DNA of 52,368 nucleotides from Candidatus Omnitrophota bacterium (lineage in GTDB: Bacteria > Omnitrophota > Gorgyraeia > Zapsychrales > Zapsychraceae). The stretch covers positions 1 through 52,368 of the forward strand of contig JAKQAH010000165.1 in assembly GCA_029568545.1 (NCBI GenBank), written 5' to 3'. Of this stretch, positions 5,358 to 45,677 are shown in pieces. The notes beneath the pieces were generated by a model. That model saw only the letters and a list, made by a program, of their open reading frames with translations, was not told where the DNA came from and did not search any database. The first letter of the stretch is position 1; the number at the start of each line of letters is the position of its first letter. The position numbers and the translations under genes are program-made.

Positions 5358-6473
5358 TTAGTTGGAAAAATCCGTTTCGATAATGACCAGCGCGATAAGC
5401 GTGAACAGAAGGGGCGTGGCCCAGGCGGAAAGCAGAGGAGGGAACAAGCCGCCTTTGCCGAACGCCAAAGAGACGGCATTCGCGACATAATAAAGAAACC
5501 CGAGGATCAGGGCCAGCCCGATGGCCAGAAACGCGCTCCCCTTACGGCTGCGGATCATCAAGGCAAAAGGAAGGCCGAGCAAGACAATAACAAAATTCCC
5601 GAATGGATAAGCGATCTTTTGGTGGAGGTCGACCCGCATATTATTGAGGGCTTTGGCGGCTCCGCTTTTGGAAAAGCGCTCAATATAACTCTTCAGCTGC
5701 CGGATGTTCATGGCCGTGACGTTCAGCCGCTGGTTGAGGAAGTCATTGGGGCTTTCCTTGATATCCATCAGTTTTTCTTTATAGACTTTGATCATAAGCG
5801 GCGTGTTGATATCGGTCTCGCTGAATGTCGTGATCTGGCACTGGTAGAATTTCCAGGCGATCCCCGTCCAGACGCCCTTAAGGGCCACGATTTTCTGCCT
5901 TATGTTCTGCTGTTCGTCGTGCTCAATGATGGTCACTCCCAGGATTTCGTTTGTTTCGGCATCGAAAGTGTCGATGAAGTAAAGCCGGTTCTTGAGCCCG
6001 TAAAATGTCAAGTTTTTGATCTTTTCCTGTTTTTTGCGCAGTCGGTCTACGAGCAAAACCATGTTTTCGTTGCGGATTTGTTCGGTGATCTCGGTGGCCC
6101 GGGGAACAAGGCGCTCGTTGACCCAGAACACAAGAATCGAGATGATCAGGCCGAACATGATGGCCGGTTTTGTGATCTGCCAGAAACTTAGCCCGCTGGC
6201 GCGCATGGCGATGACTTCGTTGTTGGTATTGAGATGGCTGAAGGTAAAGAGTACCGCGATCAGGCACGCAACCGATGAGATTGGCTGGCTCAGGATGATC
6301 GGGAAATAGGACATGTAGTATTGGACCAGGATATCGAGGGGGACTTTACGATCAATGAACTCGTCGAGCTGGCTGGTGATATCGATCAGGACGTACAAAA
6401 AAGAGAACGTCAGGATCGTGAAGATGAAGATCGTGACGACGGATCGAGTGATATAGCGGTCTAGAATTCGCAT
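5358..6473 (-). CDS. lptG: LPS export ABC transporter permease LptG (YjgP/YjgQ family)
   Basis: N-terminus ILDRYI, six predicted TM segments around a central periplasmic domain. Second of two tandem overlapping YjgP/YjgQ genes. Confidence 0.8.
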   Translation of the reverse strand: MRILDRYITRSVVTIFIFTILTFSFLYVLIDITSQLDEFIDRKVPLDILVQYYMSYFPIILSQPISSVACLIAVLFTFSHLNTNNEVIAMRASGLSFWQITKPAIMFGLIISILVFWVNERLVPRATEITEQIRNENMVLLVDRLRKKQEKIKNLTFYGLKNRLYFIDTFDAETNEILGVTIIEHDEQQNIRQKIVALKGVWTGIAWKFYQCQITTFSETDINTPLMIKVYKEKLMDIKESPNDFLNQRLNVTAMNIRQLKSYIERFSKSGAAKALNNMRVDLHQKIAYPFGNFVIVLLGLPFALMIRSRKGSAFLAIGLALILGFLYYVANAVSLAFGKGGLFPPLLSAWATPLLFTLIALVIIETDFSN

Positions 6474-7546
6474 TTGTAGTTAAGGATTGCCGCGCCGATG
6501 ATGGCGATGGTGTTGGGGACCCACATGATCAGTCCGGGCGGAGCGATGCCCTTTTTGCTGAGAGCTTCGCATCCTAAAGAAACCAGGTAGTAAAAGGCGA
6601 AACAAAGAATTGCCAGGACGATGTTAGCGGATTTTTCGCGCCGGTTAGTGATAACAGCCAAGGGAAAACCGATCAGAATGAAAAGCAACGGTGAAAATGA
6701 CCACGTAATTTTGCGGAAATACTCGGTTTCGAGATGGGTCGTATCGATGAGAAGCGGCTGCAACTTGGCGATCTCGGCCTTCAATTCTTTCAATGTCATG
6801 CTTTGCGGCTTTTTCTCGATCTCTTTGTTTTCCTTGGAGAGATCGAGGGTCATGAAATAGTCCTTAAAATTCAATTTGTAGAAATTTTCCGGATTTTCCA
6901 AGCTAGGTTCGTCCGATGTTCCGTCCATGAGCTTGAGCTTGATCTGGTTCCCGCCGGGAACTGGGGTGAACTCGCCCCGCCGCGCGATGATCGTTCTTGT
7001 CGGCCTGTCCGGCTGCGGTTGATAAATGGTGATGTTGAACATCTGATTGTTTTCGATCTTATGGATGAAAATGATCTGGTCCTGGAAGGCGTGGATGAAC
7101 ATGCCGGCCTCCAGCAACGCTGTTGGGTTTTCTGCGCCAAGATTTTTGAGCGCGCGCCGCTGCGCATGATGCGCGTAAGGGATGACCCGCTCATTCAAGA
7201 CGATCAGAATGAGGCTGGCAATGATGCCTAGGATGATGAGAGGGTTCAAGAGGCGGGCCAAATGGACGCCGCTGGCGCGCAGAGCGATGATCTCGTTGTC
7301 GGCTGAAAAACGGCTGAAGGCAAAGATAACGCTGATGAGGCAGGCGATGGGGATCGTGTATCCCAGGAAAACAGGGATCATCAACAGAAAAGCCCTGCCC
7401 ACGGTCACAATGTTCACGCCTTTATTAATGACCAGGTTGGTCAGCTGGATCAGGTTTCCCAAGAGAAAGACGCAGGTCAGGACGAGCAGCGCCATGAAGA
7501 AGGGGATGATGCATTCTTTCAATATATAGGATCGGATGATGCGCAT
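6461..7546 (-). CDS. lptF: LPS export ABC transporter permease LptF (YjgP/YjgQ family)
   Basis: Same architecture as lptG and overlaps it by 13 nt. It is the upstream member of the pair. Confidence 0.8.
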   Translation of the reverse strand: MRIIRSYILKECIIPFFMALLVLTCVFLLGNLIQLTNLVINKGVNIVTVGRAFLLMIPVFLGYTIPIACLISVIFAFSRFSADNEIIALRASGVHLARLLNPLIILGIIASLILIVLNERVIPYAHHAQRRALKNLGAENPTALLEAGMFIHAFQDQIIFIHKIENNQMFNITIYQPQPDRPTRTIIARRGEFTPVPGGNQIKLKLMDGTSDEPSLENPENFYKLNFKDYFMTLDLSKENKEIEKKPQSMTLKELKAEIAKLQPLLIDTTHLETEYFRKITWSFSPLLFILIGFPLAVITNRREKSANIVLAILCFAFYYLVSLGCEALSKKGIAPPGLIMWVPNTIAIIGAAILNYKCEF

Positions 7547-13541: not shown

Positions 13542-13935
13542 GGGGGTGACATGGTATCGACTTAAGATGTTGTTGTATAAGGCGCATGCCGAGGACGCCT
13601 GGTAGGCCTCGTAAATCATCTGGGCACAAACAAATGCAAACGATAATATCCTTGCACAAGCCAACGAGATCGTTAACCCGATCTTCGAGGCACAAACAGT
13701 CTTAGCTTAAAACTTAAGCTGAGCCCTTTTGCAGGCCATGCCTGTAGGTTTGCAAAAGGTCCTTAACAGGCTAGCCGCAGCTCCTGCCTGAGGGATTGCG
13801 GCGAATTCATAAGGCTGGTTCCGTCAGATTTTGTTTGTCGAAGCGGGCGGGATGAGACTAAAAGACAAACTAAGCATGTAGGGCCTTATGCGGAACTCTT
13901 CAAGGACGGCGGTTCGATTCCGCCCACCTCCACCA
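13542..13935 (+). ncRNA. ssrA: tmRNA (transfer-messenger RNA)
   Basis: 5' GGGGGTGACATGGTATCGAC and 3' GGACGGCGGTTCGATTCCGCCCACCTCCACCA form the tRNA-Ala-like domain. Internal tag frame GCA AAC GAT AAT ... TTA GCT TAA at 13636-13710 has its stop inside the hairpin AGCTTAA-AAC-TTAAGCT. smpB lies 0.5 kb upstream. Confidence 0.9.
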
Positions 13936-20085: not shown

Positions 20086-20343
20086 CTACCGGATAACAGT
20101 TGTCTGCACCAGGAAGGCCCGATTATCGGCGGTGTACATGACAGTTTCCGTGGTCTGCCACTGGGCCGTTTCGGCCGGCATTTGCTCCGCTTGCCGGACA
20201 GGTGCTGACGGGATGTCCGTCATTTGAACCGAAGCCGGCATGGTGACCGTGATCTTGTAGGCTTTGGTCATGCTCCTGGCCGCTAGGGCGGGAGTAGCGC
20301 AGAATACCAAGAGTAGTGCTAGGGTAAGAAATCGTTTAGCCAT
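20086..20343 (-). CDS. small secreted protein, hypothetical
   Basis: 85 aa with signal peptide ending ALA|AR and RBS GAGGA upstream. Convergent with the outer-membrane protein gene, only 12 nt away. Confidence 0.5.
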   Translation of the reverse strand: MAKRFLTLALLLVFCATPALAARSMTKAYKITVTMPASVQMTDIPSAPVRQAEQMPAETAQWQTTETVMYTADNRAFLVQTTVIR

Positions 20344-20448: not shown

Positions 20449-20534
20449 GCAACGGCAGCTGACGGCCATATTCCGGCGTTCCGGAACACAGGCTCTAAAG
20501 CTTTGTGTCCTGCCCTTTCGGGAAGTTTACCTTT
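20449..20534 (-). promoter_or_regulatory. candidate c-di-GMP-I (GEMM-I)-like riboswitch aptamer
   Basis: Minus-strand RNA reads AAAGGUAAAC-UUCCC-GAAA-GGGCA-GGACACAAAGC-UUUAGAGCC... The GEMM-I core as I recall it is GGCAAAC..stem-GAAA-stem..GGGACGCAAAGCC. An 11-bp hairpin CCUGUGUUCCGG-AACG-CCGGAAUAUGG follows, then CAGCUGCCG. I ran no covariance-model scan. Confidence 0.35.
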
Positions 20535-20572
20535 ATTCTTCTTAAAGAACGATTTTCTTTCTCCCTTGGGAA

Positions 20573-38184: not shown

Positions 38185-38213
38185 TTGACGCGCCAGGGGT
38201 ATCACTTTATAAT
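38185..38213 (+). promoter_or_regulatory. sigma70-like promoter for the Cys-rich repeat gene
   Basis: TTGACG, 17-nt spacer, TATAAT. Confidence 0.5.
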
Positions 38214-38259: not shown

Positions 38260-41200
38260 ATGAACCTGCCATTGAGAAAAAACCTTGTTTTAGTCTTAGC
38301 TATTCTGGTATCTTTTGCTTCTGGTTGTGACTTTTTCAAATCGAAACCAAAAGAGCAAGAGGCTCCTCTCCGGACTGAAAGGCTGATTGCCAAAGAAGCT
38401 GTCTCGCCTGCCCAATTGCCGGTCACCCAGGCCCAACGATATCTAAGCTATCAACCCAATTGCCGGGATCTTGGCCTTTTGGAAAAGAACGGATGCGGCC
38501 AGTGCAGCAAGATCCCCAACAGTGCCTGTTCGGTGGCTAGGCGCTCCCCCGAGGGATTCCAATGTTACGAATGTGTGACCAAGCGCGAAGAATGCCGCGA
38601 TATCGGAAAGCTTGACCGAAGGAGCTGCCAATTGTGCGAGGAGGTTTCCAGCGCCCAGTGCGCTCCATCCGGAAAAACCAAAGACGGTGAGGCCTGCTAT
38701 AAATGTGTCCAGCAGAAACCGCCGTGCGTGCGGCTGGGCCTTTTAGCCGAAGAGGATTGCGGTCCTTGCCAGAAGCACAAGAGCCTTCAATGCGTTCCGG
38801 CAACTATGACCGAAGATGGGACCCAATGCTATGAATGCGTTGACAAACCCGAAGAGTGCGAGGATTTGGGATATTTTTCGTCCAAAGATTGCCGCGAATG
38901 CGAACGGGATGCGACCAAAGACTGCAGTCTTGTGATCCGGACAAAAAGCGGGCGCAAATGTTATCAATGTATCGATAAGCCTCAAACATGTCAAGATATC
39001 GGCTTGATGGATCATAATGTTTGTTTGGGCTGCGCTGAAAACCCTCAAAAAGAATGCCTGAAAGCGGAAAAGAAAACTAATAAAGGAAAAGAATGTTATG
39101 AGTGCGTTGATAAGCCTAGGGCATGTGCGGACCTTGGTTTTATCGATTTTGAGGGATGCCAGAAATGCGCGAAAGAGCCGGGTAAAGAATGCCATAGCAT
39201 AGAAGCTCTCAAGGGAAGCCAGCAGTGTTTCCAATGTCTCGATAATCCGGAGCAGTGCAACGAGATCGGCTTGCTTGATGCAAAGAATTGCTACAGCTGC
39301 GATGCCGATCCGAAAAAGGAATGTGTTCCTGATAAGAAAACCAAGGAAGGGATGCAGTGTTTCGCCTGCCGCGAAAAACCGCAGGAATGCGCCGACATCA
39401 ATTATCTCGACGAATCTCAGTGTGCCGCCTGCACGGCTGATTCGAAAAAGGAATGTGCCCTGGCAAAGCAAACGAAAGAAGGTAAGCAGTGCTACAAATG
39501 CCAGGATAAGCCCGAAGAGTGCGTTGATCTGGGCCTCATTGACCAGACGGAATGCGAGGCTTGCGCGAAGGACCGCAAAAAAGAATGCGTTGCGGACCGG
39601 CAGACCAAAGAAGGCAAACAGTGCTTTAAGTGCCAGGACAAGCCCCAAAAATGCGAGGAATTGGATCTTTTGGACGAAACGCAATGCGCCGTCTGCACGG
39701 AAAATCCGAAAAAAGAATGCGCGGCTGATCAAAAGACCAAAGAAGGCAAACAATGCTTTAAGTGCCAGGACAAGCCCCAAGAGTGCGCTGATCTGAAACT
39801 GATCGATGAGCAAGAGTGCATAACCTGCGCATCGGATCCCAAAAAGCTTTGCCTCGAGGATAAAAAGACCAAAGAAGGCAAGCCGTGTTTCCGGTGCGAA
39901 GACAAGCCGGAGGAATGCGTTGATTTGCAATTAGTCGATGAGAAAGATTGCGAGGTCTGCGCGGCCGATTCCAAGAAGGAGTGTGTTGCTGATCGGCAGA
40001 CCAAAGAAGGCAAGCAATGCTTTAAGTGCCAGGATAAGCCCCAAGAATGCGCCGATATTAATCTCATTGATCAAAAGGATTGCGCCTCTTGCGCGGATGA
40101 TCCGAAAAAAGAATGCGTCGAGGGTCAAAAGACCAAGGAAGGCAAACAATGCTACCGCTGTCAGGAAAGGATCCAAACGTGCAGTGAATTGAACTTGATT
40201 AGCGAAGAAGACTGCGCGGTATGCAACGCCGATCCGGGAAAACAATGCATTGCCGACCAGAAAACGGAGCAGGGAAAGCAGTGCTACCGATGCCAGGATA
40301 AGCCTCAAGAGTGCGCACAGCTCAATCTGATCGATGAGCAGCAGTGTCCGGCCTGCACGGCTGATCCGGCGAAAGAGTGCGTGGCTGATCAAAAGACCGA
40401 AGAAGGCAAACAATGCTTTAAGTGCCAGGATAGACCGCAGCAATGCGCCGATTTAGGATTGATCAGCGCGCAGGGTTGCGAAGCCTGCACGGCTGATCCG
40501 AGGATGGAATGCCTAAAGGATCAGGAAACCAAAGAAGGCGAGCAATGTTACAAGTGCAGCGAGAAACCCCAGGAATGCGTCGACCTTAATCTTCTGGAAG
40601 AGTCAGAGTGCAATACATGCACGTCCGACCCGAAAAAACAATGCTCTGCCGATCAAAAAACAAAGCAAGGAAAACAGTGTTATCGTTGCGAAGACAAACC
40701 GCAACAATGCGCTGAATTGAACCTTATCGATGTGAGCGAGTGCGGCGCGTGCGCTTCTGATCCGTCCAAAGAATGCGTCGAGAGCCAAAAGACCAAAGAA
40801 GGCAAACCCTGCTATCGTTGTCAGATTAAGACCCAGAAGTGCAGCGAATTGAACCTGATCGACGAATCGCAATGTCCGCAATGCCTGGCCGATCCGAAAA
40901 AACAATGCGCGCCCGGGCAAAAAACCAACGAAGGGATGCAATGTTATCAGTGCCAGGATAAGCCGGAAGAGTGCGCCGATTTTATGCAGATCGAGGAAAT
41001 GGAATGCGCGGCGTGCACCGCTGATTCAAAAAAGGAATGCCTCCCCGGGCGAATGACAAAAGAAGGCAAACAATGCTATCAATGCCAAGACAAGCCGCAG
41101 GAATGCGCCGAATTGGATCTTTTTGACGAAAAAGACTGCGCGGCATGCGCGTCTGATCCGAAAAAACAGTGCGCGCCGGACCAGAAGACCAGAGAGGGCA

Positions 41201-41892
41201 AGCAATGCTATCGCTGCCAGGATAAACCGCAAGAATGTTCGGAGCTTGATCTTCTCGATCAGGCTCAGTGCGGCGCATGCGTATCCGATCCGAGGAAAAT
41301 CTGCGTTGAGGACCGCAAGACCAAAGAAGGCAAGCAATGCTTTAAGTGCCAGGATAAACCTCAGGAATGCTCAGAGCTGAATTTGATCGATCAGGCGCAG
41401 TGCGCGCCATGCGTCTCTGACCCGAGGAAGGAATGCATTGCCGATGAGCTGACCAAAGAAGGCAAACAATGCTATCAATGCGTGGATAAGCCTGAGCAAT
41501 GCAAGGATCTCGGACTGCTTGATGCCGAAGGCTGCCGCTTGTGCGACAGCGTTGCGGGAAAGAAATGCGTGGAAGGCAAGCGCACCAAAGAAGGGCGGCC
41601 CTGTTATAGCTGCCAAGAGAGGTCGCAAGCCTGTGGGCAGTTAGGGCTTTTGAACGCGCTGGAATGCGAATATAAGTGCACGGATTGCGTCGAGGCCCAG
41701 AAGGCAGCGAACGGCGAGCAATGTTTCAGCTGTAACTCCAAGCCCGGCGGCACGGAATGCTTGAACAACGATTATTACAGGGATTGCTCCTCTTGCAAAG
41801 AAGGTGAGATCTGCGAAGAGATGGGCGTTATCCTGTTTTATGAAACGCGCAAGACCTTGCCGTTAACGTGCTATACGTGTACGCCTAAATAA
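38260..41892 (+). CDS. giant cysteine-rich tandem-repeat putative lipoprotein (24 x 44-aa six-Cys modules)
   Basis: Signal peptide with SFASGC (Cys23). From Cys68 come 24 consecutive modules with spacing C-x10-C-x2-C-x7-C-x11-C-x2-C-x6. Consensus is about C[AS][DE]LNLID[EQ]x[EQ]CxxCxxDPKKECxxDQKTKEGKQC[FY][KR]CQDKPQE. A degenerate 25th module and a Cys-rich cap follow. Confidence 0.85.
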   Translation: MNLPLRKNLVLVLAILVSFASGCDFFKSKPKEQEAPLRTERLIAKEAVSPAQLPVTQAQRYLSYQPNCRDLGLLEKNGCGQCSKIPNSACSVARRSPEGFQCYECVTKREECRDIGKLDRRSCQLCEEVSSAQCAPSGKTKDGEACYKCVQQKPPCVRLGLLAEEDCGPCQKHKSLQCVPATMTEDGTQCYECVDKPEECEDLGYFSSKDCRECERDATKDCSLVIRTKSGRKCYQCIDKPQTCQDIGLMDHNVCLGCAENPQKECLKAEKKTNKGKECYECVDKPRACADLGFIDFEGCQKCAKEPGKECHSIEALKGSQQCFQCLDNPEQCNEIGLLDAKNCYSCDADPKKECVPDKKTKEGMQCFACREKPQECADINYLDESQCAACTADSKKECALAKQTKEGKQCYKCQDKPEECVDLGLIDQTECEACAKDRKKECVADRQTKEGKQCFKCQDKPQKCEELDLLDETQCAVCTENPKKECAADQKTKEGKQCFKCQDKPQECADLKLIDEQECITCASDPKKLCLEDKKTKEGKPCFRCEDKPEECVDLQLVDEKDCEVCAADSKKECVADRQTKEGKQCFKCQDKPQECADINLIDQKDCASCADDPKKECVEGQKTKEGKQCYRCQERIQTCSELNLISEEDCAVCNADPGKQCIADQKTEQGKQCYRCQDKPQECAQLNLIDEQQCPACTADPAKECVADQKTEEGKQCFKCQDRPQQCADLGLISAQGCEACTADPRMECLKDQETKEGEQCYKCSEKPQECVDLNLLEESECNTCTSDPKKQCSADQKTKQGKQCYRCEDKPQQCAELNLIDVSECGACASDPSKECVESQKTKEGKPCYRCQIKTQKCSELNLIDESQCPQCLADPKKQCAPGQKTNEGMQCYQCQDKPEECADFMQIEEMECAACTADSKKECLPGRMTKEGKQCYQCQDKPQECAELDLFDEKDCAACASDPKKQCAPDQKTREGKQCYRCQDKPQECSELDLLDQAQCGACVSDPRKICVEDRKTKEGKQCFKCQDKPQECSELNLIDQAQCAPCVSDPRKECIADELTKEGKQCYQCVDKPEQCKDLGLLDAEGCRLCDSVAGKKCVEGKRTKEGRPCYSCQERSQACGQLGLLNALECEYKCTDCVEAQKAANGEQCFSCNSKPGGTECLNNDYYRDCSSCKEGEICEEMGVILFYETRKTLPLTCYTCTPK
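38461..41631 (+). repeat. 132-bp in-frame tandem repeat array (24 units) inside the Cys-rich gene
   Basis: The first TGC of unit 1 is at 38461 and the first codon of unit 25 at 41632. Near-identical 47-nt stretches GCTGATCAAAAGACC(A/G)AAGAAGGCAAACAATGCTTTAAGTGCCAGGA lie at 39724 and 40384, which is 5 x 132 nt apart. Confidence 0.9.
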
Positions 41893-41926
41893 TGAGCGAA
41901 CGTTCGCTATAGTCTTAGATAATAAG

Positions 41927-41957
41927 CGGCCATCAAATGATGGCCGTTTATTTTTTT
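41927..41957 (+). terminator. rho-independent terminator
   Basis: CGGCCATC / loop AAAT / GATGGCCG, followed by TTTATTTTTTT. Confidence 0.8.
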
Positions 41958-42078
41958 AGAGAAAATGTTCAGGAGCAGGATTGAATATTCTCGGTTTTTC
42001 CTTGTGAGGAGATTTTTTGAGGGTAAAATAAGGCTATAGGAAGAATTTATTGAACAAAGGGGCGGCGCTTTGGAGTTT

Positions 42079-42687
42079 ATGAATTCTTTAGGGGTGTTGA
42101 TGGGCGGGGCCTGGGGCTCGGGCGTCAATCTTTACATGACAACAGCCGGCCTCGGGATCGCTCACCGCATGGGTTGGCTCACGCTTCCCGGGAGTATGGA
42201 AACCCTGGCCAATCCTCTGGTTATCGGGATAGCCATCCTCCTGTATGCGGTTGAATTTGTTGCCGACAAGATTCCCTTCGTTGATTCCGCCTGGGATACG
42301 GTCCATACGTTTATCCGCCCAGTGGGGGGGATGGCTTTAGGCTACATGGCCATGGCAGATGTTGGTCCCGCGATACAGTATCCCGTCGCGATCTTGACAG
42401 GATCCATTGCCTTGGATTCCCACTTGACCAAAGCGACGGCGCGAGCGGCCATTAATACTTCTCCGGAGCCGTTCAGCAATTCGGTTGCAAGCGTCACGGA
42501 AGATGCGAGTGTCTTTGGTGTAATGTATTTGATCATCAAGCATCCGATCATTGCCGCAATCCTTGTTATTTTGTTCGTCCTGTTCTCGATATGGTTTTTG
42601 AAGACCATGTTCCGCTTCATTAAAAAGATTTTCGGTAAAAGCGGCGCAAAGCCGCCGGAAACTCAACAGCAAGCAGTTAACTCGTAA
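42079..42687 (+). CDS. DUF4126 domain-containing membrane protein
   Basis: GVNLYMTTAGLG...AVEFVADKIPFVDSAWDTVHTFIRP fits the DUF4126 pattern. ATG at 42079; the ORF track starts at TTG 42070. Confidence 0.75.
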   Translation: MNSLGVLMGGAWGSGVNLYMTTAGLGIAHRMGWLTLPGSMETLANPLVIGIAILLYAVEFVADKIPFVDSAWDTVHTFIRPVGGMALGYMAMADVGPAIQYPVAILTGSIALDSHLTKATARAAINTSPEPFSNSVASVTEDASVFGVMYLIIKHPIIAAILVILFVLFSIWFLKTMFRFIKKIFGKSGAKPPETQQQAVNS

Positions 42688-42700
42688 AAAGGAGGAAAAA

Positions 42701-42868
42701 ATGCAAGGAATTTTAGGTCTTATTGTTCTGGTGTTGGACATTCTTGCGATTGTGGATTGCGTCAAAAGCGCCAAATCGGGTGGGCAAAAAGCACTTTGGA
42801 TTATCCTCATCCTCGTTCTTCCCATTCTCGGTTTGATCCTTTATTATCTCATCGGCAAGAAGAAATAG
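42701..42868 (+). CDS. small membrane protein, PLD-nuclease-N-terminal (PLDc_N)-like
   Basis: Absent from the ORF track (55 aa). RBS AAAGGAGG lies 6 nt upstream. MQGILGLIVLVLDILAIVDCVKSAKSGGQKALWIILILVLPILGLILYYLIGKKK has two TM segments and the W..ilvlP.lG...Y pattern. Confidence 0.65.
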   Translation: MQGILGLIVLVLDILAIVDCVKSAKSGGQKALWIILILVLPILGLILYYLIGKKK

Positions 42869-42891
42869 TTTCGGCGTAAAAGCGGTTGGCA

Positions 42892-42925
42892 GGGGGCAGA
42901 TTCTTTGGAATTTGCCCCCTTTTTA
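42892..42925 (+). terminator. rho-independent terminator
   Basis: GGGGGCAGATTC / loop TTTG / GAATTTGCCCCC, followed by TTTTTA. Confidence 0.8.
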
Positions 42926-43106
42926 TTCCTAAAGATTCACAAGTAAACCGTTTGTATTGATCGGATCTTATTGAAGAGGCCTCGCCATAAATCAAAAGCT
43001 GGCCGATTTTTCTGTTTTACTTCCCAAGGAATAAATAGTAAGATGCTTGCTGTGTTTTGACGGTTGAAGAACTCAATTCCCGCATGATTAGGGCTTTAAA
43101 AACGAA

Positions 43107-45677
43107 ATGTATAGCACAGGCATTACAGGTTTAGATGAGATCCTTTCCGGGCTGAAATTAGGCGATAACGTCGTCTGGCAAGTCAATACAGTCGAGAACT
43201 ACATCGATTTTGTCCGGCCGTTCGTCAAAAAAGCGCTGGAGGAAAAAAGACGGATGGTCTACATCCGCTTTGCCGACCATCCTCCGATCGTTGAGCCCCA
43301 TAAAGATATTATTGTTTATCAGTTGGATGCCTCCGCCGGATTTGAATCGTTCTCGGTCGAGCTGAATTCGATCATCAGCAAAGAGGGGGAAGGCGTTTTT
43401 TATGTGATCGACTGCCTTTCCTACCTGCTTTCGGAATGGTCCAATGACCTGATGATCGGGAATTTCTTCAAGATCACCTGCCCGTATCTTTATCAGCTGG
43501 ATACGATCACGTATTTCGGCCTGTTGCGCAACCGCCATTCGTTCAAGACCATTGCGCGCATCCGCGATACGACGCAATTGCTCATCGATGTTTATCATTA
43601 CGAAGATAACTATTATGTCCATCCGCTGAAGGTATGGCAGCGTTACTCCCCGACGATGTTCCTGCCGCACATCAAGAAGGGCGACCGCTTCGAGCCGATC
43701 ACCAACAGCGCCGATGCGTCCAATCTTTTCTCCCATACTTTCATGGAGGGGGCGAAAAGCATCCGGCGGAACCTTGATTTCTGGGACCAGCTGTTTTTGA
43801 AGGCCGCTTCGGTAATGGGGCAGGAAGGCGCCGAGCAAGAAAAAGCGCAAATGATGGATCAGCTGTGCCGGATTACGATCGCGCGCGACGAAAAGCTTTT
43901 AGACCTGGCCAAGCGGCATTTTACGCTCAAAGATCTTTTGGATATCAAGGCCAGGATGATCGGAACCGGGTTTATCGGCGGTAAATCGGTCGGCATGTTG
44001 ATCGCGCGCAATATCCTCGCGAAGGATGAATCGCTTAAGAGCAGGGATTTTGAGCCTCACGATTCTTTTTACATCGGGTCCGATGTTTTTTACACTTACA
44101 TCGTTGAGAACGGATGGTGGCAGGCGCGCATGAAGCAGAGGACCAAAGAATCTTATTTTTCGGCTTCCAAGGAGCTCAAAGAGAAATTGCTTCATGGGGT
44201 TTTCCCTGAAGAGATTGCGGAACAGTTTAAGGACCTGATCGAGTATTTCGGGCAGTCTCCGATCATTGTCCGGTCCAGCAGCCTGCTTGAGGACAGTTAC
44301 GGCAACGCCTTTGCCGGAAAGTATGAAAGCGTTTTTCTCGCCAATCAGGGGACGCCAGAACAGCGGTATAAGGAATTTATCAAGGCGGTGCGCCTGATCT
44401 ATGCGTCGACAATGAACGAAGACGCTCTGGTTTACCGTTTGCAGCGCGGGCTTGACCAGATGGATGAGCAGATGGCCCTGTTGGTCCAGCGGGTTTCGGG
44501 GGCCTATCATGAAGATTATTTCTTTCCCGACGCTGCCGGCGTGGGGCTTTCGTATAATACCTTCGTCTGGAAAGACGGCTTGGACCCGAAGGCTGGTGTT
44601 CTGCGCATCGTTGTCGGGCTCGGCACCAGGGCCGTGGACCGCGTCGAAGGCGACTATGCGCGCATTGTGGCCCTGGATGATCCTCTGGTCAAGCCGCATG
44701 CGAGTTCCAAAGATGCGCAAAGGTTTTCCCAGCATAAGCTCGACGTGATCAATGTCAGGCAGAATTGTTTCCAGTCTGTTTTCATCAGGGATCTTTTGCG
44801 GGAAAAAATCCAGCTGAATCTGGGGCTGATCGCATCAAAAGATTATGAGACCATAGAACGGCTCAGGAGCCGGGGGATCGAAGAAGACGTGTGGATCATG
44901 ACGTTTGACCGTCTTTTTTCGGAAAGCGATTTCGGATCGACGGTCCAGAAAATCCTCAAGACCTTGGAAACGGCGTATGGATATCCGGTTGATATAGAAT
45001 TTACCGTTCATTTTAAAGCGGATAATGAATTCCAATTTAACCTGCTGCAATGCCGGCCGTTAAAGACCAAGGGATGGGGGAAGAGGGTCAAGATTCCCGC
45101 CAAGATCGATAAGGGGAAAATGGTTTTTGAGTCTTTCGGCAATTTTCTCGGCGGGAACATCTCGCAGACCATCAACAGGATCATTTATGTCGATCCCCAG
45201 GCGTACGCGGAGCTGATGACGCAGTCGCAGAAGTACGATATCGCCCGCATTATCGGAGAGCTGAATCATCTGGCCGGGAGCAGGGAGCGGCTTGCCGTGA
45301 TGCTTTTGGGCCCGGGGCGGTGGGGAACATCGACCCCTTCGCTGGGCGTTCCGGTTTCTTTCGCGGAGATCAGCAATATCGCGGTCTTAGGCGAGATCGC
45401 TTTTGAGACCAGCAATGCCGTTCCGGAATTATCCTTTGGCACCCACTTCTTCCAGGACCTTGTTGAGACGGATATTTTGTATTTGGCGCTGTTCCCGGAC
45501 TATGAAAAAGTTTATTTAAACCGGCCATTTTTCATGTCCCAGCTGAATCTGTTAAGCGCGCTTGTTCCCGACCACAAAAAATATGAGCATGTCATAAAAG
45601 TTTTGGACATGGGCGAGCGGAAACTCACGGTTTCTTCCGATATTATTTCTCAAAGGATCCTTTGCTATTTTTCATGA
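43107..45677 (+). CDS. PEP/pyruvate-binding (PPDK_N ATP-grasp) domain protein with N-terminal P-loop-less KaiC/RecA-like domain
   Basis: The N-terminus GITGLDEILSGLKLGDNVVWQV resembles KaiC/RadA-like GIpGLDe.lgGGl.G but has no GxxGxGKT. The central part has IGGKSVGM and IVRSSSLLEDSYGNAFAGKYESV, typical of PPDK_N. Confidence 0.7.
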   Translation: MYSTGITGLDEILSGLKLGDNVVWQVNTVENYIDFVRPFVKKALEEKRRMVYIRFADHPPIVEPHKDIIVYQLDASAGFESFSVELNSIISKEGEGVFYVIDCLSYLLSEWSNDLMIGNFFKITCPYLYQLDTITYFGLLRNRHSFKTIARIRDTTQLLIDVYHYEDNYYVHPLKVWQRYSPTMFLPHIKKGDRFEPITNSADASNLFSHTFMEGAKSIRRNLDFWDQLFLKAASVMGQEGAEQEKAQMMDQLCRITIARDEKLLDLAKRHFTLKDLLDIKARMIGTGFIGGKSVGMLIARNILAKDESLKSRDFEPHDSFYIGSDVFYTYIVENGWWQARMKQRTKESYFSASKELKEKLLHGVFPEEIAEQFKDLIEYFGQSPIIVRSSSLLEDSYGNAFAGKYESVFLANQGTPEQRYKEFIKAVRLIYASTMNEDALVYRLQRGLDQMDEQMALLVQRVSGAYHEDYFFPDAAGVGLSYNTFVWKDGLDPKAGVLRIVVGLGTRAVDRVEGDYARIVALDDPLVKPHASSKDAQRFSQHKLDVINVRQNCFQSVFIRDLLREKIQLNLGLIASKDYETIERLRSRGIEEDVWIMTFDRLFSESDFGSTVQKILKTLETAYGYPVDIEFTVHFKADNEFQFNLLQCRPLKTKGWGKRVKIPAKIDKGKMVFESFGNFLGGNISQTINRIIYVDPQAYAELMTQSQKYDIARIIGELNHLAGSRERLAVMLLGPGRWGTSTPSLGVPVSFAEISNIAVLGEIAFETSNAVPELSFGTHFFQDLVETDILYLALFPDYEKVYLNRPFFMSQLNLLSALVPDHKKYEHVIKVLDMGERKLTVSSDIISQRILCYFS

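Follow-up and report, generated by a model that had tools for sequence, protein, structure and literature searches.

The window analysed here is a 52,368-nucleotide stretch of an Omnitrophota contig, and on its forward strand it bears a gene for a Cys-rich predicted lipoprotein with the following features:

38185-38213, forward strand: sigma-70-like promoter match, TTGACG-17-TATAAT (consensus scan, 11/12), 47 nt 5′ of the start codon
38260-41892, forward strand: complete coding sequence of 1210 aa plus stop with 157 Cys, the longest open reading frame of the region
38260-38328, forward strand: predicted signal peptide with lipobox, aa 1-23 (ending VSFASG/C23; PS51257-type pattern)
38329-38460, forward strand: Cys-free, charged, Pro-rich tether, aa 24-67 (from an alignment of family N-termini)
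38461-41631, forward strand: array of 24 modules of 44 aa each (45 aa in module 5), C-x10-C-x2-C-x7-C-x11-C-x2-C-x6
41632-41757, forward strand: degenerate 25th module, aa 1125-1166, C-x10-C-x3-C-x2-C-x11-C-x2-C
41758-41889, forward strand: C-terminal cap, aa 1167-1210, a divergent six-Cys module, C-x8-C-x2-C-x5-C-x18-C-x2-C
41921-41952, forward strand: intrinsic-terminator-like hairpin, 29 nt past the stop codon, with a 14-bp stem (6 G-C pairs), a loop of 4 nt and a T run behind it

The promoter and terminator posited in an earlier note on this DNA are thus present as consensus matches, and the promoter in particular is a prediction from such a match alone, which is no proof of function. A gene for a PP-loop ATPase lies upstream and a DUF4126 gene downstream, both syntenic in relatives and neither showing a functional link to the lipoprotein gene; the short paralogue P0016 is located behind an NHL-repeat gene instead. 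LptF/LptG are encoded in the window, which shows a diderm envelope, and no Dsb or VKOR gene occurs among the window reading frames scanned.

The reading frame at 38260-41892 is a real, conserved gene. Tandem repeats can be mis-joined by short-read assemblers, and such an array might be suspected of being an assembly artefact or a noncoding repeat that is open by chance, but the frame remains open for 3.6 kb with all 144 module Cys codons in register, the same architecture is kept in three other species, and the module units are too divergent for collapse. Moreover, an independent contig from activated sludge, spanning window positions 41207-43661 at 99.6% identity, confirms the 3′ end of the gene. 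The chance of an artefact is therefore negligible, and this explanation is effectively refuted already. Long open reading frames also cross the array on the opposite strand or in other frames, for example one of 395 aa at 38743-39930 on the reverse strand, and these are treated as by-products because they translate into low-complexity mirror images of the repeat. The protein itself is 13.0% Cys and rich in K (11.7%), E (10.8%), Q (9.0%) and D (7.9%), contains just 3 His and lacks Trp. The mature form has a pI of 4.9, a net charge of −46 and an even number of Cys (156) after the presumably lipidated Cys23.

The N-terminus, MNLPLRKNLVLVLAILVSFASGC, matches the PROSITE PS51257-type lipobox pattern, as Cys23 falls within positions 15-35 and the K/R required among the first 7 is supplied by R6 and K7; this bears out at the level of sequence the lipobox-like SFASGC of the earlier note. 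Seven other family members (L001, P0016, P0021, P0025, P0027, P0028 and P0032) match the same pattern; the L002 orthologue does not, having FIRC in place of the lipobox. The signal peptide is of the Sec type (RK, with twin-arginine absent), and the tether that follows ends in a conserved AQxYLxYQPx motif directly before module 1.

From Cys68 to residue 1124, the module spacing repeats 24 times with a sole exception in module 5 (x12), and the consensus reads CxDLxLxDxxxCxxCxxDPxKECxxDxKTKEGKQCYxCQDKPQE. The protein contains 52 CxxC motifs, with 19 residues separating the two pairs of a module, and T29 and G32, both in the hairpin tip, are the positions best conserved besides Cys (94% each). The 132-nt period was recovered by TRF and by a second repeat finder, with 17 in-register copies reported. 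The degenerate 25th module is conserved in every lipoprotein-type relative having a C-terminus. The cap, which carries the hydrophobic stretch GVILFYE and ends the protein with CYTCTPK, is conserved in L001-L003, P0007, P0010, P0016, P0018 and P0019, and is divergent yet alignable in P0004. The anatomy described previously (24 six-Cys modules, a degenerate 25th and a Cys-rich cap) holds apart from the spacing of module 5, and the hand count of 144 Cys in the array, 12 in the tail and 1 in the lipobox was exact. An origin of the 44-aa module as a doubled 22-aa CxxC-x7-C half unit was considered and rejected, as 272 of 1000 shuffles reached the observed profile score.

No family in Pfam or NCBIfam was matched by the whole protein, one module, three modules, the cap or the N-terminus (Pfam, E up to 1 for the whole protein and up to 10 for fragments; NCBIfam, E≤1 for the whole protein and up to 10 for one module, three modules and the cap). 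The opinion of the earlier note that the module is neither EGF-like, nor the Myxococcus Cys-rich repeat, nor a DnaJ zinc finger is upheld: there is no Pfam EGF match for the whole protein or for one or three modules, and the spacing differs; NCBIfam gives no match, TIGR02232 and TIGR04201 being presumed within the release searched; and the protein has zero CxxCxGxG motifs and no Pfam match. CxxCH haem-binding motifs of the kind expected of multihaem c-type cytochromes are likewise absent from the 1210 residues. A sequence search of the PDB with the whole protein returned no match, and Foldseek-type searches of the PDB (one- and three-module AF2 models) and BFVD (three-module model), which are insensitive for 44-residue domains, gave a best E of ~2 and TM <0.5. 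The checks by AlphaFold and Foldseek that had been proposed for one to three modules thus yield a predicted helix and hairpin with no fold match. In the literature, no description was found of the module repeat or of Cys-rich lipoproteins in Omnitrophota, and key surveys of the phylum do not mention the module family.

A search with a module profile had also been proposed earlier, and profile A1 retrieved only 34 proteins at E≤1e-3 from 1.84 billion representatives. All taxonomically placeable members are Omnitrophota. The family is defined here by C-x(8-12)-C-x(2-4)-C-x(5-7)-C-x(5-14)-C-x2-C, a match to profile A1 and an exported protein, a definition that includes the window protein, with its 25 matches to the profile. 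The sequences are best read as a new domain family whose general kind is already known. Orthologues occur in three other Omnitrophota MAGs with 24, 25 and at least 8 modules, the last on a partial contig, at 64-67% identity and without loss of any module Cys. The full-length orthologues are L001 of 1205 aa and L002 of 1254 aa with 25 modules, and partial ones are L003 and L005. Between one and the same lipobox and cap, family members carry from 2 modules (P0016) to 25 (L002). Relatives hold single modules between poly-Pro linkers or two modules between Cys-free acidic linkers, and in giant relatives the modules lie N-terminal to Peptidase_S8, these being secreted subtilases of other Omnitrophota.

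The central units had been described as nearly identical in DNA, with a copy number probably variable by recombination and prone to assembly error. A 47-48-nt stretch with one mismatch is indeed present at an offset of 660, but whole modules are just 40-76% identical in nucleotide sequence and exact repeats reach 40 nt at most. Three species whose proteins are ~65% identical have 24, 24 and 25 copies. Modules 1-7 and 24 are one-to-one orthologous across species, with edge modules 76% identical at the same position versus 36% at other positions, and the central modules retain a weak but significant positional signal between species. Central modules are 58.0% identical within the window versus 58.3% between species; modules of this one genome thus resemble each other no more than they resemble those of other species, and concerted evolution is absent. 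Because the modules are divergent, their counts stable and their positions orthologous, both the proposed copy-number variability and the proneness to assembly error are unlikely here. The same evidence weighs against a reading, close to the inference of the earlier note, as a size-variable surface lipoprotein, in which fast recombination of repeat number would vary the surface coat in the manner of the Mycoplasma Vlp-type proteins. Such a protein would also pair a lipobox with a long region of charged tandem repeats, and the near-identical 48-nt stretch, the 24 versus 25 copies between species and the contig-end fragments P0004, P0008 and L005 (low-coverage assemblies break within such arrays) could be taken in its favour. 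Vlp/Vsp repeats are, however, short, unstructured, Cys-free, near-identical in DNA and rapid to change in copy number, whereas those of the window protein are predicted to be structured and are divergent and stable in number. With edge modules orthologous and central ones not homogenised within the genome, this explanation is very improbable.

AF2 models each module as a helix (residues 9-15) and a β-hairpin (21-28/34-40) at a pLDDT of 91-93 (one module, 91.2; three modules, 92.8), with junction residues >90 and a pTM of 0.62. For multi-module modelling, non-overlapping alignment blocks (A3) were used and sliding 4-module windows (A2) were dropped, as MAFFT put the overlaps out of register. 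In these models C5xxC6 lies in the continuous β-strand (34-40) and C2xxC3 in the helix (9-15), and neither pair occupies a knuckle turn. Single-Cys loss is found in 0 of 186 complete modules in the family; the sole loss is of C2 and C4 together (P0011, P0013, P0017 and P0034), probably as one evolutionary event. In relatives, 2, 3 or 4 residues separate C2 from C3, the spacing of C5xxC6 is fixed, and no Cys-to-His swap occurs among the 186 modules. Because the CxxC pairs are placed in strand and helix, C2 and C4 are lost jointly and the C2-C3 spacing varies, three disulfides per module are favoured over zinc knuckles; the lack of Cys-to-His swaps and the even Cys number of the mature protein speak for disulfides as well. 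The co-loss suggests that C2 pairs with C4; pairings of C1 with C6 and of C3 with C5 would be guesses. The confident one-module model and the isolated modules between linkers in relatives suggest that the modules are autonomous domains.

The module profile matches only the RING domains of MDM2 in the PDB, marginally (E 5e-4), with which it shares the spacing C-x2-C-x7-C-x11-C-x2-C; in MDM2, the two CxxC pairs of this pattern bind zinc, and a hairpin separates the pairs there and in zinc ribbons as it is predicted to do in the module. Cys spacing alone does not account for the match, since the native score of 24.8 bits stands about 4 SD above Cys-preserving shuffles (7.7 ± 4.2). Membership of the RING family zf-C3HC4_3 is nevertheless rejected: PF13920 scores 10.8 bits (E 0.46), far under the cut-off of 27, covers just 13 residues, and the His ligands that belong to the eight of the RING cross-brace are absent. 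Exported thiols might remain reduced in Omnitrophota, many of which live anaerobically. On this basis each module could bind Zn, or Fe in the manner of rubredoxin, in a Cys4 site made up of C2, C3, C5 and C6, with C1 and C4 paired or free, and the ~24-26 tethered metal centres could serve in buffering, storage or, with Fe, electron transfer. The 52 CxxC motifs and the 19-residue gap are compatible with zinc ribbons and rubredoxins. The predicted placement of the CxxC pairs outside knuckles argues against such sites, as does the loss of C2 with C4 and not with another proposed ligand, which misfits the MDM2 ligand set. C2-C3 spacings of 3 or 4 are common in relatives, Cys and His do not interchange, the second zinc site of MDM2 is missing, no other RING was matched, the predicted secondary structure differs, and the window protein would be exported and not cytosolic. 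Nor could a cofactor be loaded before export, because the signal peptide is of the Sec type with no twin-arginine. The metal-binding alternative of the earlier note is thus less likely than a disulfide-bonded stalk; a metal-thiolate array is unlikely overall, and the specific form in which every module is a Cys4 centre in place of a disulfide knot, giving an exported tethered chain of ~24-26 closely spaced Zn or Fe thiolate sites, is more doubtful still. Were it true, an uncultured nanobacterium would carry on its surface a haem-free store of metal or, if the metal is iron, an electron conduit resembling rubredoxin. Metal binding by the modules would make the finding considerably more unusual.

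On balance, the protein is probably a stalk, anchored by a lipid and stabilised by disulfides, that displays a cap with a hydrophobic hairpin, and the extracytoplasmic disulfide stalk proposed earlier is the best reading of the predicted secondary structure, the Cys co-loss and the variation in spacing. After Sec export and cleavage by signal peptidase II, a lipid on Cys23 would hold the protein to the membrane. Its body would be a chain of 24 autonomous 44-residue mini-domains, in each of which three internal disulfides would lock a short helix packed on a β-hairpin. One degenerate module comes next and, at the terminus, a divergent module with a longer hairpin of hydrophobic character. AF2 confidence stays high across the module junctions, which suggests that the array is a fairly stiff beaded rod. 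The likely job is structural, that of a chemically robust spacer or stalk fixing how far the cap stands from the membrane, and the conserved Lys-rich tip of the hairpin, K-T-K-E-G-K, would be displayed 24 times over along with it. Module counts of 2 to 25 between the same lipobox and cap are consistent with this role, as is the conservation of T29 and G32 at the tip, and a generic stalk also fits the giant subtilases, whose long N-terminal region is made of modules of this family. The stalk of the window protein could serve cell-surface adhesion or envelope spacing in a diderm Omnitrophota bacterium.

Omnitrophota are usually grouped near the PVC lineages, which use Cys-rich envelope proteins, typified by OmcB and the lipoprotein OmcA of Chlamydiae. 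A Cys-rich, lipobox-bearing protein in a diderm of this affinity could act as an envelope cross-linker, its intermolecular disulfides rigidifying the envelope of a very small cell. However, neither the whole protein nor its fragments match the chlamydial OMP families of Pfam or any other family, and OmcA/OmcB, which work by cross-linking between molecules, are not regular module arrays. In the window protein each module has a strictly even set of six Cys that is complete in itself, the isolated modules of relatives indicate pairing within the module, and the same modules precede secreted proteases. Cross-linking in this manner is improbable.

Bacteria of the Omnitrophota, uncultured and for the most part ultra-small, are thought to rely on other cells, and their surface proteins are largely unannotated. 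The compact and confidently predicted six-Cys domain, having no described relative, offers a new family for their annotation, one that appears to be used in two ways, as a putative lipid-anchored stalk of 24 modules and as the stalk of giant secreted subtilases. The lipoprotein is a candidate cell-surface spacer or adhesin for models of host contact, and its modules are a potentially useful, very stable scaffold.

The EGF-like and cbEGF arrays of fibrillin and Notch, in which six-Cys, three-disulfide modules of ~40-45 residues are strung head to tail into long extracellular rods, resemble the window array in module length, Cys number and arrangement. EGF modules, in contrast, lack both the CxxC pairs and the helix and have C-x-C between the fourth and fifth Cys, and the present module, predicted as a helix and one hairpin, has no Ca-binding consensus. 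The predicted fold and the co-loss also suggest a likeness to the CS-αβ proteins (defensins, scorpion toxins), in which a helix with two close Cys is stapled to a β-hairpin, although these differ in the order of elements, bear a CxxxC helix and CxC strand where CxxC and C...CxxC occur here, and were not matched by Foldseek. A further parallel is the TraA type of Myxococcus (TIGR04201), an exported surface protein that has a sorting tag for lipid anchoring and tandem Cys-rich repeats, presumed to be disulfide-bonded and proposed to form a rigid stalk from the lipid anchor to a distal functional domain (PMC3325183). The window protein differs from TraA in its Cys pattern and in its 24 repeats versus about 5-9, is anchored by an N-terminal lipobox and not a C-terminal MYXO-CTERM, and ends distally in a small hydrophobic-hairpin cap where TraA has a PA14 lectin domain.

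The array gene and the parts of its product are arranged as follows:

38185-38213: promoter-like site TTGACG-17-TATAAT (11/12 matches)
38260-41892, forward strand: array gene, one long ORF of 1210 aa
aa 1125-1166 of the product: degenerate module, following the 24 modules
aa 1167-1210 of the product: six-Cys cap, following the degenerate module
41921-41952: terminator hairpin with a 14-bp stem

The 24 repeats begin at Cys68 with Cys-to-Cys spacings of 10, 2, 7, 11, 2 and 6 residues, an arrangement described in the earlier note and borne out here save for an x12 spacing in module 5, the sole departure. The 132-nt period was recovered by both TRF and a repeat finder, and a recount of the translated ORF reproduced exactly the tally of 144 Cys in the array, 12 in the tail and 1 in the lipobox, giving 157 in total (13.0% of residues). 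The N-terminus, MNLPLRKNLVLVLAILVSFASG followed by the lipobox Cys, passes a PS51257-type lipobox rule, and the predicted mature protein is of ~133 kDa with a pI of 4.9 and a net charge of -46; the window protein has three His and no Trp. Other ORFs lie within the array (38743-39930 and 39931-40443 on the reverse strand, 39275-39796 on the forward strand), the longest of 395 aa, and were rejected as genes since their translations are repetitive and of low complexity; they look like by-products of a periodic coding sequence.

Neither Pfam nor NCBIfam matched the whole protein, a single module, a three-module stretch, the cap or the N-terminus, and phmmer with the window protein against PDB sequences likewise returned nothing. 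A word-indexed search of 5.8 billion proteins gave only three matches, each of them giant, rich in Cys and with Peptidase_S8 at its C-terminus. The A1 profile, built from the window's 24 modules and run against 1.84 billion representatives, retrieved only 34 proteins at E ≤ 1e-3, of which 16 reach E ≤ 1e-10. The two named matches are each annotated "hypothetical protein [Candidatus Omnitrophica bacterium]", and the contig encoding a 2438-aa match of the subtilase type (P0011, below) also carries SHMT, the named relatives of which are nearly all from Omnitrophota (75-80% identity). Neither cysteine nor disulfide is mentioned in the key Omnitrophota papers. Taken together, the lack of Pfam, NCBIfam or PDB matches, the few profile matches, their taxonomy and the silence of this literature identify the six-Cys module, as judged from sequence, as a new, rare and previously undescribed domain family that is so far restricted to this phylum. 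One of the profile matches, P0031 (892 aa), is a proline-rich, extensin-like protein of eukaryotic appearance with repeated CKxGDIYSELRxFDTSDCQLCEDDCQAEC units that align to profile positions 3-29 only (E 3e-5), and is probably unrelated or convergent.

The family comprises two architectures. In the lipoprotein type, the lipobox is followed by a Cys-free tether with ...YLxYQPx at its end and then by N canonical modules; next come a degenerate module and the cap, which fits CLxxDYxxDCxxCxEGExCEExG(V/L)ILF(Y/F)E...CYxC, and N ranges from 2 (P0016, 364 aa) to 25 (in the L002 orthologue described below); eight members, the window protein and seven others, pass the lipobox rule, and the L002 orthologue has FIRC. 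The subtilase type begins with a plain signal peptide and 20-40 six-Cys modules that are heterogeneous and fit C-x(8-12)-C-x(2-4)-C-x(5-7)-C-x(5-14)-C-x2-C; a cap-like module leads on to a hydrophobic beta segment and a Lys-rich linker, after which come Peptidase_S8 and a C-terminal domain. Its genes occupy a conserved locus, NrdR...MORN-[gene]-YceI. Single modules in relatives are bordered on either side by poly-Pro or Cys-free linkers, which establishes the C1 to C6 register adopted in the earlier note as the true domain boundary. Giant subtilase-type proteins of Omnitrophota, whose modules belong to the same superfamily, are 1.3-2.4 kaa long and contain as many as 231 Cys (P0001-P0003, P0006, P0011, P0022, P0030 and P0036; loci L004 10001-15673 and L007 8001-15317). 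In another Omnitrophota MAG, P0004 and P0008 (NCBI MCA9399872.1 and MCA9399512.1) alternate the canonical module 1:1 with a second six-Cys type, C-x12-C-x3-C-x6-C-x16-C-x2-C; both arrays end at contig edges, indicating that such genes do fragment in low-coverage assemblies.

Orthologues of the window protein occur in three Candidatus Omnitrophota MAGs (L001, L002 and L003), with 64-67% identity and all module Cys retained:

L001 orthologue: 1205 aa, 157 Cys, 24 modules
L002 orthologue: 1254 aa, 165 Cys, 25 modules
L003 orthologue: partial

These bear on the earlier suggestion that the central modules are nearly identical in DNA and the array therefore probably variable in copy number through recombination and prone to assembly error. 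A near-identical stretch at an offset of 660 nt is indeed present (48 nt with one mismatch), but any two modules are 40-76% identical in nucleotides, with no exact repeat longer than 40 nt. Modules 1-7 and 24 correspond one-to-one as orthologues across species, with 76% identity at the same position versus 36% at other positions, and the positional signal of the central modules is weak but significant (61.8% vs 58.3%, permutation p = 0.003). Module identity inside the window genome, at 58.0%, is not above the between-species level, so there is no concerted evolution, and with positional orthology this marks the array as old and stable, making assembly error and rapid copy-number change unlikely. 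An independent assembly, the activated-sludge contig L005, matches window positions 41207-43661 at 99.6% nucleotide identity and runs from the last five modules through the cap and terminator to the next gene. The N-terminus of the L002 orthologue (L002 9968-10040) reads ...LVLFIRC-G, with Arg at -1 in place of a canonical lipobox, which could reflect a sequencing error, another start codon or genuine loss of lipidation; this orthologue also bears one additional Cys within a module.

With the window protein's own modules as the input alignment, AlphaFold2 reached a pLDDT of 91.2 on a single module and 92.8 on three (pTM 0.62). Each predicted module consists of a helix (residues 9-15) bearing C2 and C3 and a hairpin (21-28/34-40) bearing C4 and C5/C6, and the scores above 90 at the inter-module junctions suggest that neighbouring modules are held in fixed contact. 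Foldseek found no match in PDB or BFVD (E above ~2, TM <0.5), a search of low sensitivity for domains this small.

The Cys could in principle form disulfides or ligate metal, and three disulfides per module are favoured on four grounds. In the model, C5xxC6 lies inside a continuous strand and C2xxC3 inside a helix, with a knuckle turn in neither. Among 186 complete modules of the family, there are zero single-Cys losses and zero Cys-to-His swaps, and the sole loss is that of C2 and C4 jointly, in the same module of P0011, P0013, P0017 and P0034, implying a C2-C4 bond. Between C2 and C3, relatives have 2, 3 or 4 residues, which fits two half-cystines sharing one face of the helix but does not fit a zinc knuckle, and the signal peptide is of the Sec type, which precludes cofactor insertion before export. 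Against these stand marginal matches of the A1 profile to PDB chains, confined to MDM2 RING domains (e.g. 7ahy, 2hdp; E 5e-4, 23-25 bits), which share the identical C-x2-C-x7-C-x11-C-x2-C spacing, bind zinc through their two CxxC pairs and score ~4 SD over Cys-preserving shuffles. However, no other RING was matched among PDB chains, the Pfam RING score falls far under threshold, and the His ligands of the second RING site are absent from the window protein. The likeness to MDM2 is treated as convergence, but metal binding by the modules is kept as a less likely alternative. For the disulfide arrangement, strand parity in the model prompts a guess of C3-C5 and C1-C6 pairing.

The earlier interpretation is supported in part, with a stalk of six-Cys modules as a likely role for the array. 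A stiff, chemically robust stalk would keep cap and membrane a fixed distance apart. Consistent with this candidate role, the predicted lipid anchor and the cap stay the same from member to member, with 2 to 25 modules between them, and the module family also precedes secreted proteases; the junctions are predicted with high confidence, and the residues are on the whole very hydrophilic and acidic. Conservation is strong at the hairpin tip, K-T-K-E-G-K (T29 94%, G32 94%), which, repeated 24 times, may provide a multivalent binding surface. By analogy with EGF-sized modules, which span ~2.5-3 nm each, the full array would extend 60-80 nm. Such a length would exceed the depth of a periplasm and so point to exposure at the cell surface. 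Disulfide-rich repeat stalks on exported proteins are already known as a general class, of which the window protein is a candidate member. The closest functional analogue is TraA of Myxococcus, where Cys-rich tandem repeats unrelated in sequence to the window modules are proposed as a rigid stalk joining a lipid anchor to a PA14 head (PMC3325183).

Other features of the window are as follows:

5358-7546: LptF and LptG, which indicate a diderm envelope
13542-13935, forward strand: tmRNA gene (ARAGORN and Rfam, 187 bits)
20086-20343, reverse strand: 85-aa ORF with a signal peptide (MAKRFLTLALLLVFCATPALA...)
20451-20541, reverse strand: c-di-GMP-I riboswitch (Rfam RF01051, 65 bits)

Synteny with relatives is kept on both sides of the array gene. 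Upstream are the genes for a 950-aa pilus-N/SdrD_B protein, a GGDEF protein, DUF3313 and a PP-loop ATPase, and DUF4126 lies downstream; this synteny, together with the relatives themselves, assigns the window to Omnitrophota. No functional link emerged from the genes around the array gene; the short paralogue P0016, unlike the array gene, is sited behind an NHL-repeat gene. A segment of ~14.5 kb at about 20.6-35.1 kb is missing from the syntenic L001 and L002, where the GGDEF gene almost directly follows the 950-aa gene. This segment encodes MoxR-DUF58-transglutaminase, a HisKA_2 kinase, PLD-like, 2-thiouracil desulfurase-like, SNase-like and histone-deacetylase-like proteins, and an ADP-forming acyl-CoA ligase fused to GNAT. 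The gap that follows the 950-aa gene contains the riboswitch, directly upstream of the 85-aa ORF, and blastn alignments of L001 and L002 to the window extend to 20506 and 20585, respectively, reaching into the riboswitch interval as judged by alignment extent alone. The tmRNA encodes an unusually long tag peptide of 24 residues, ANDNILAQANEIVNPIFEAQTVLA.
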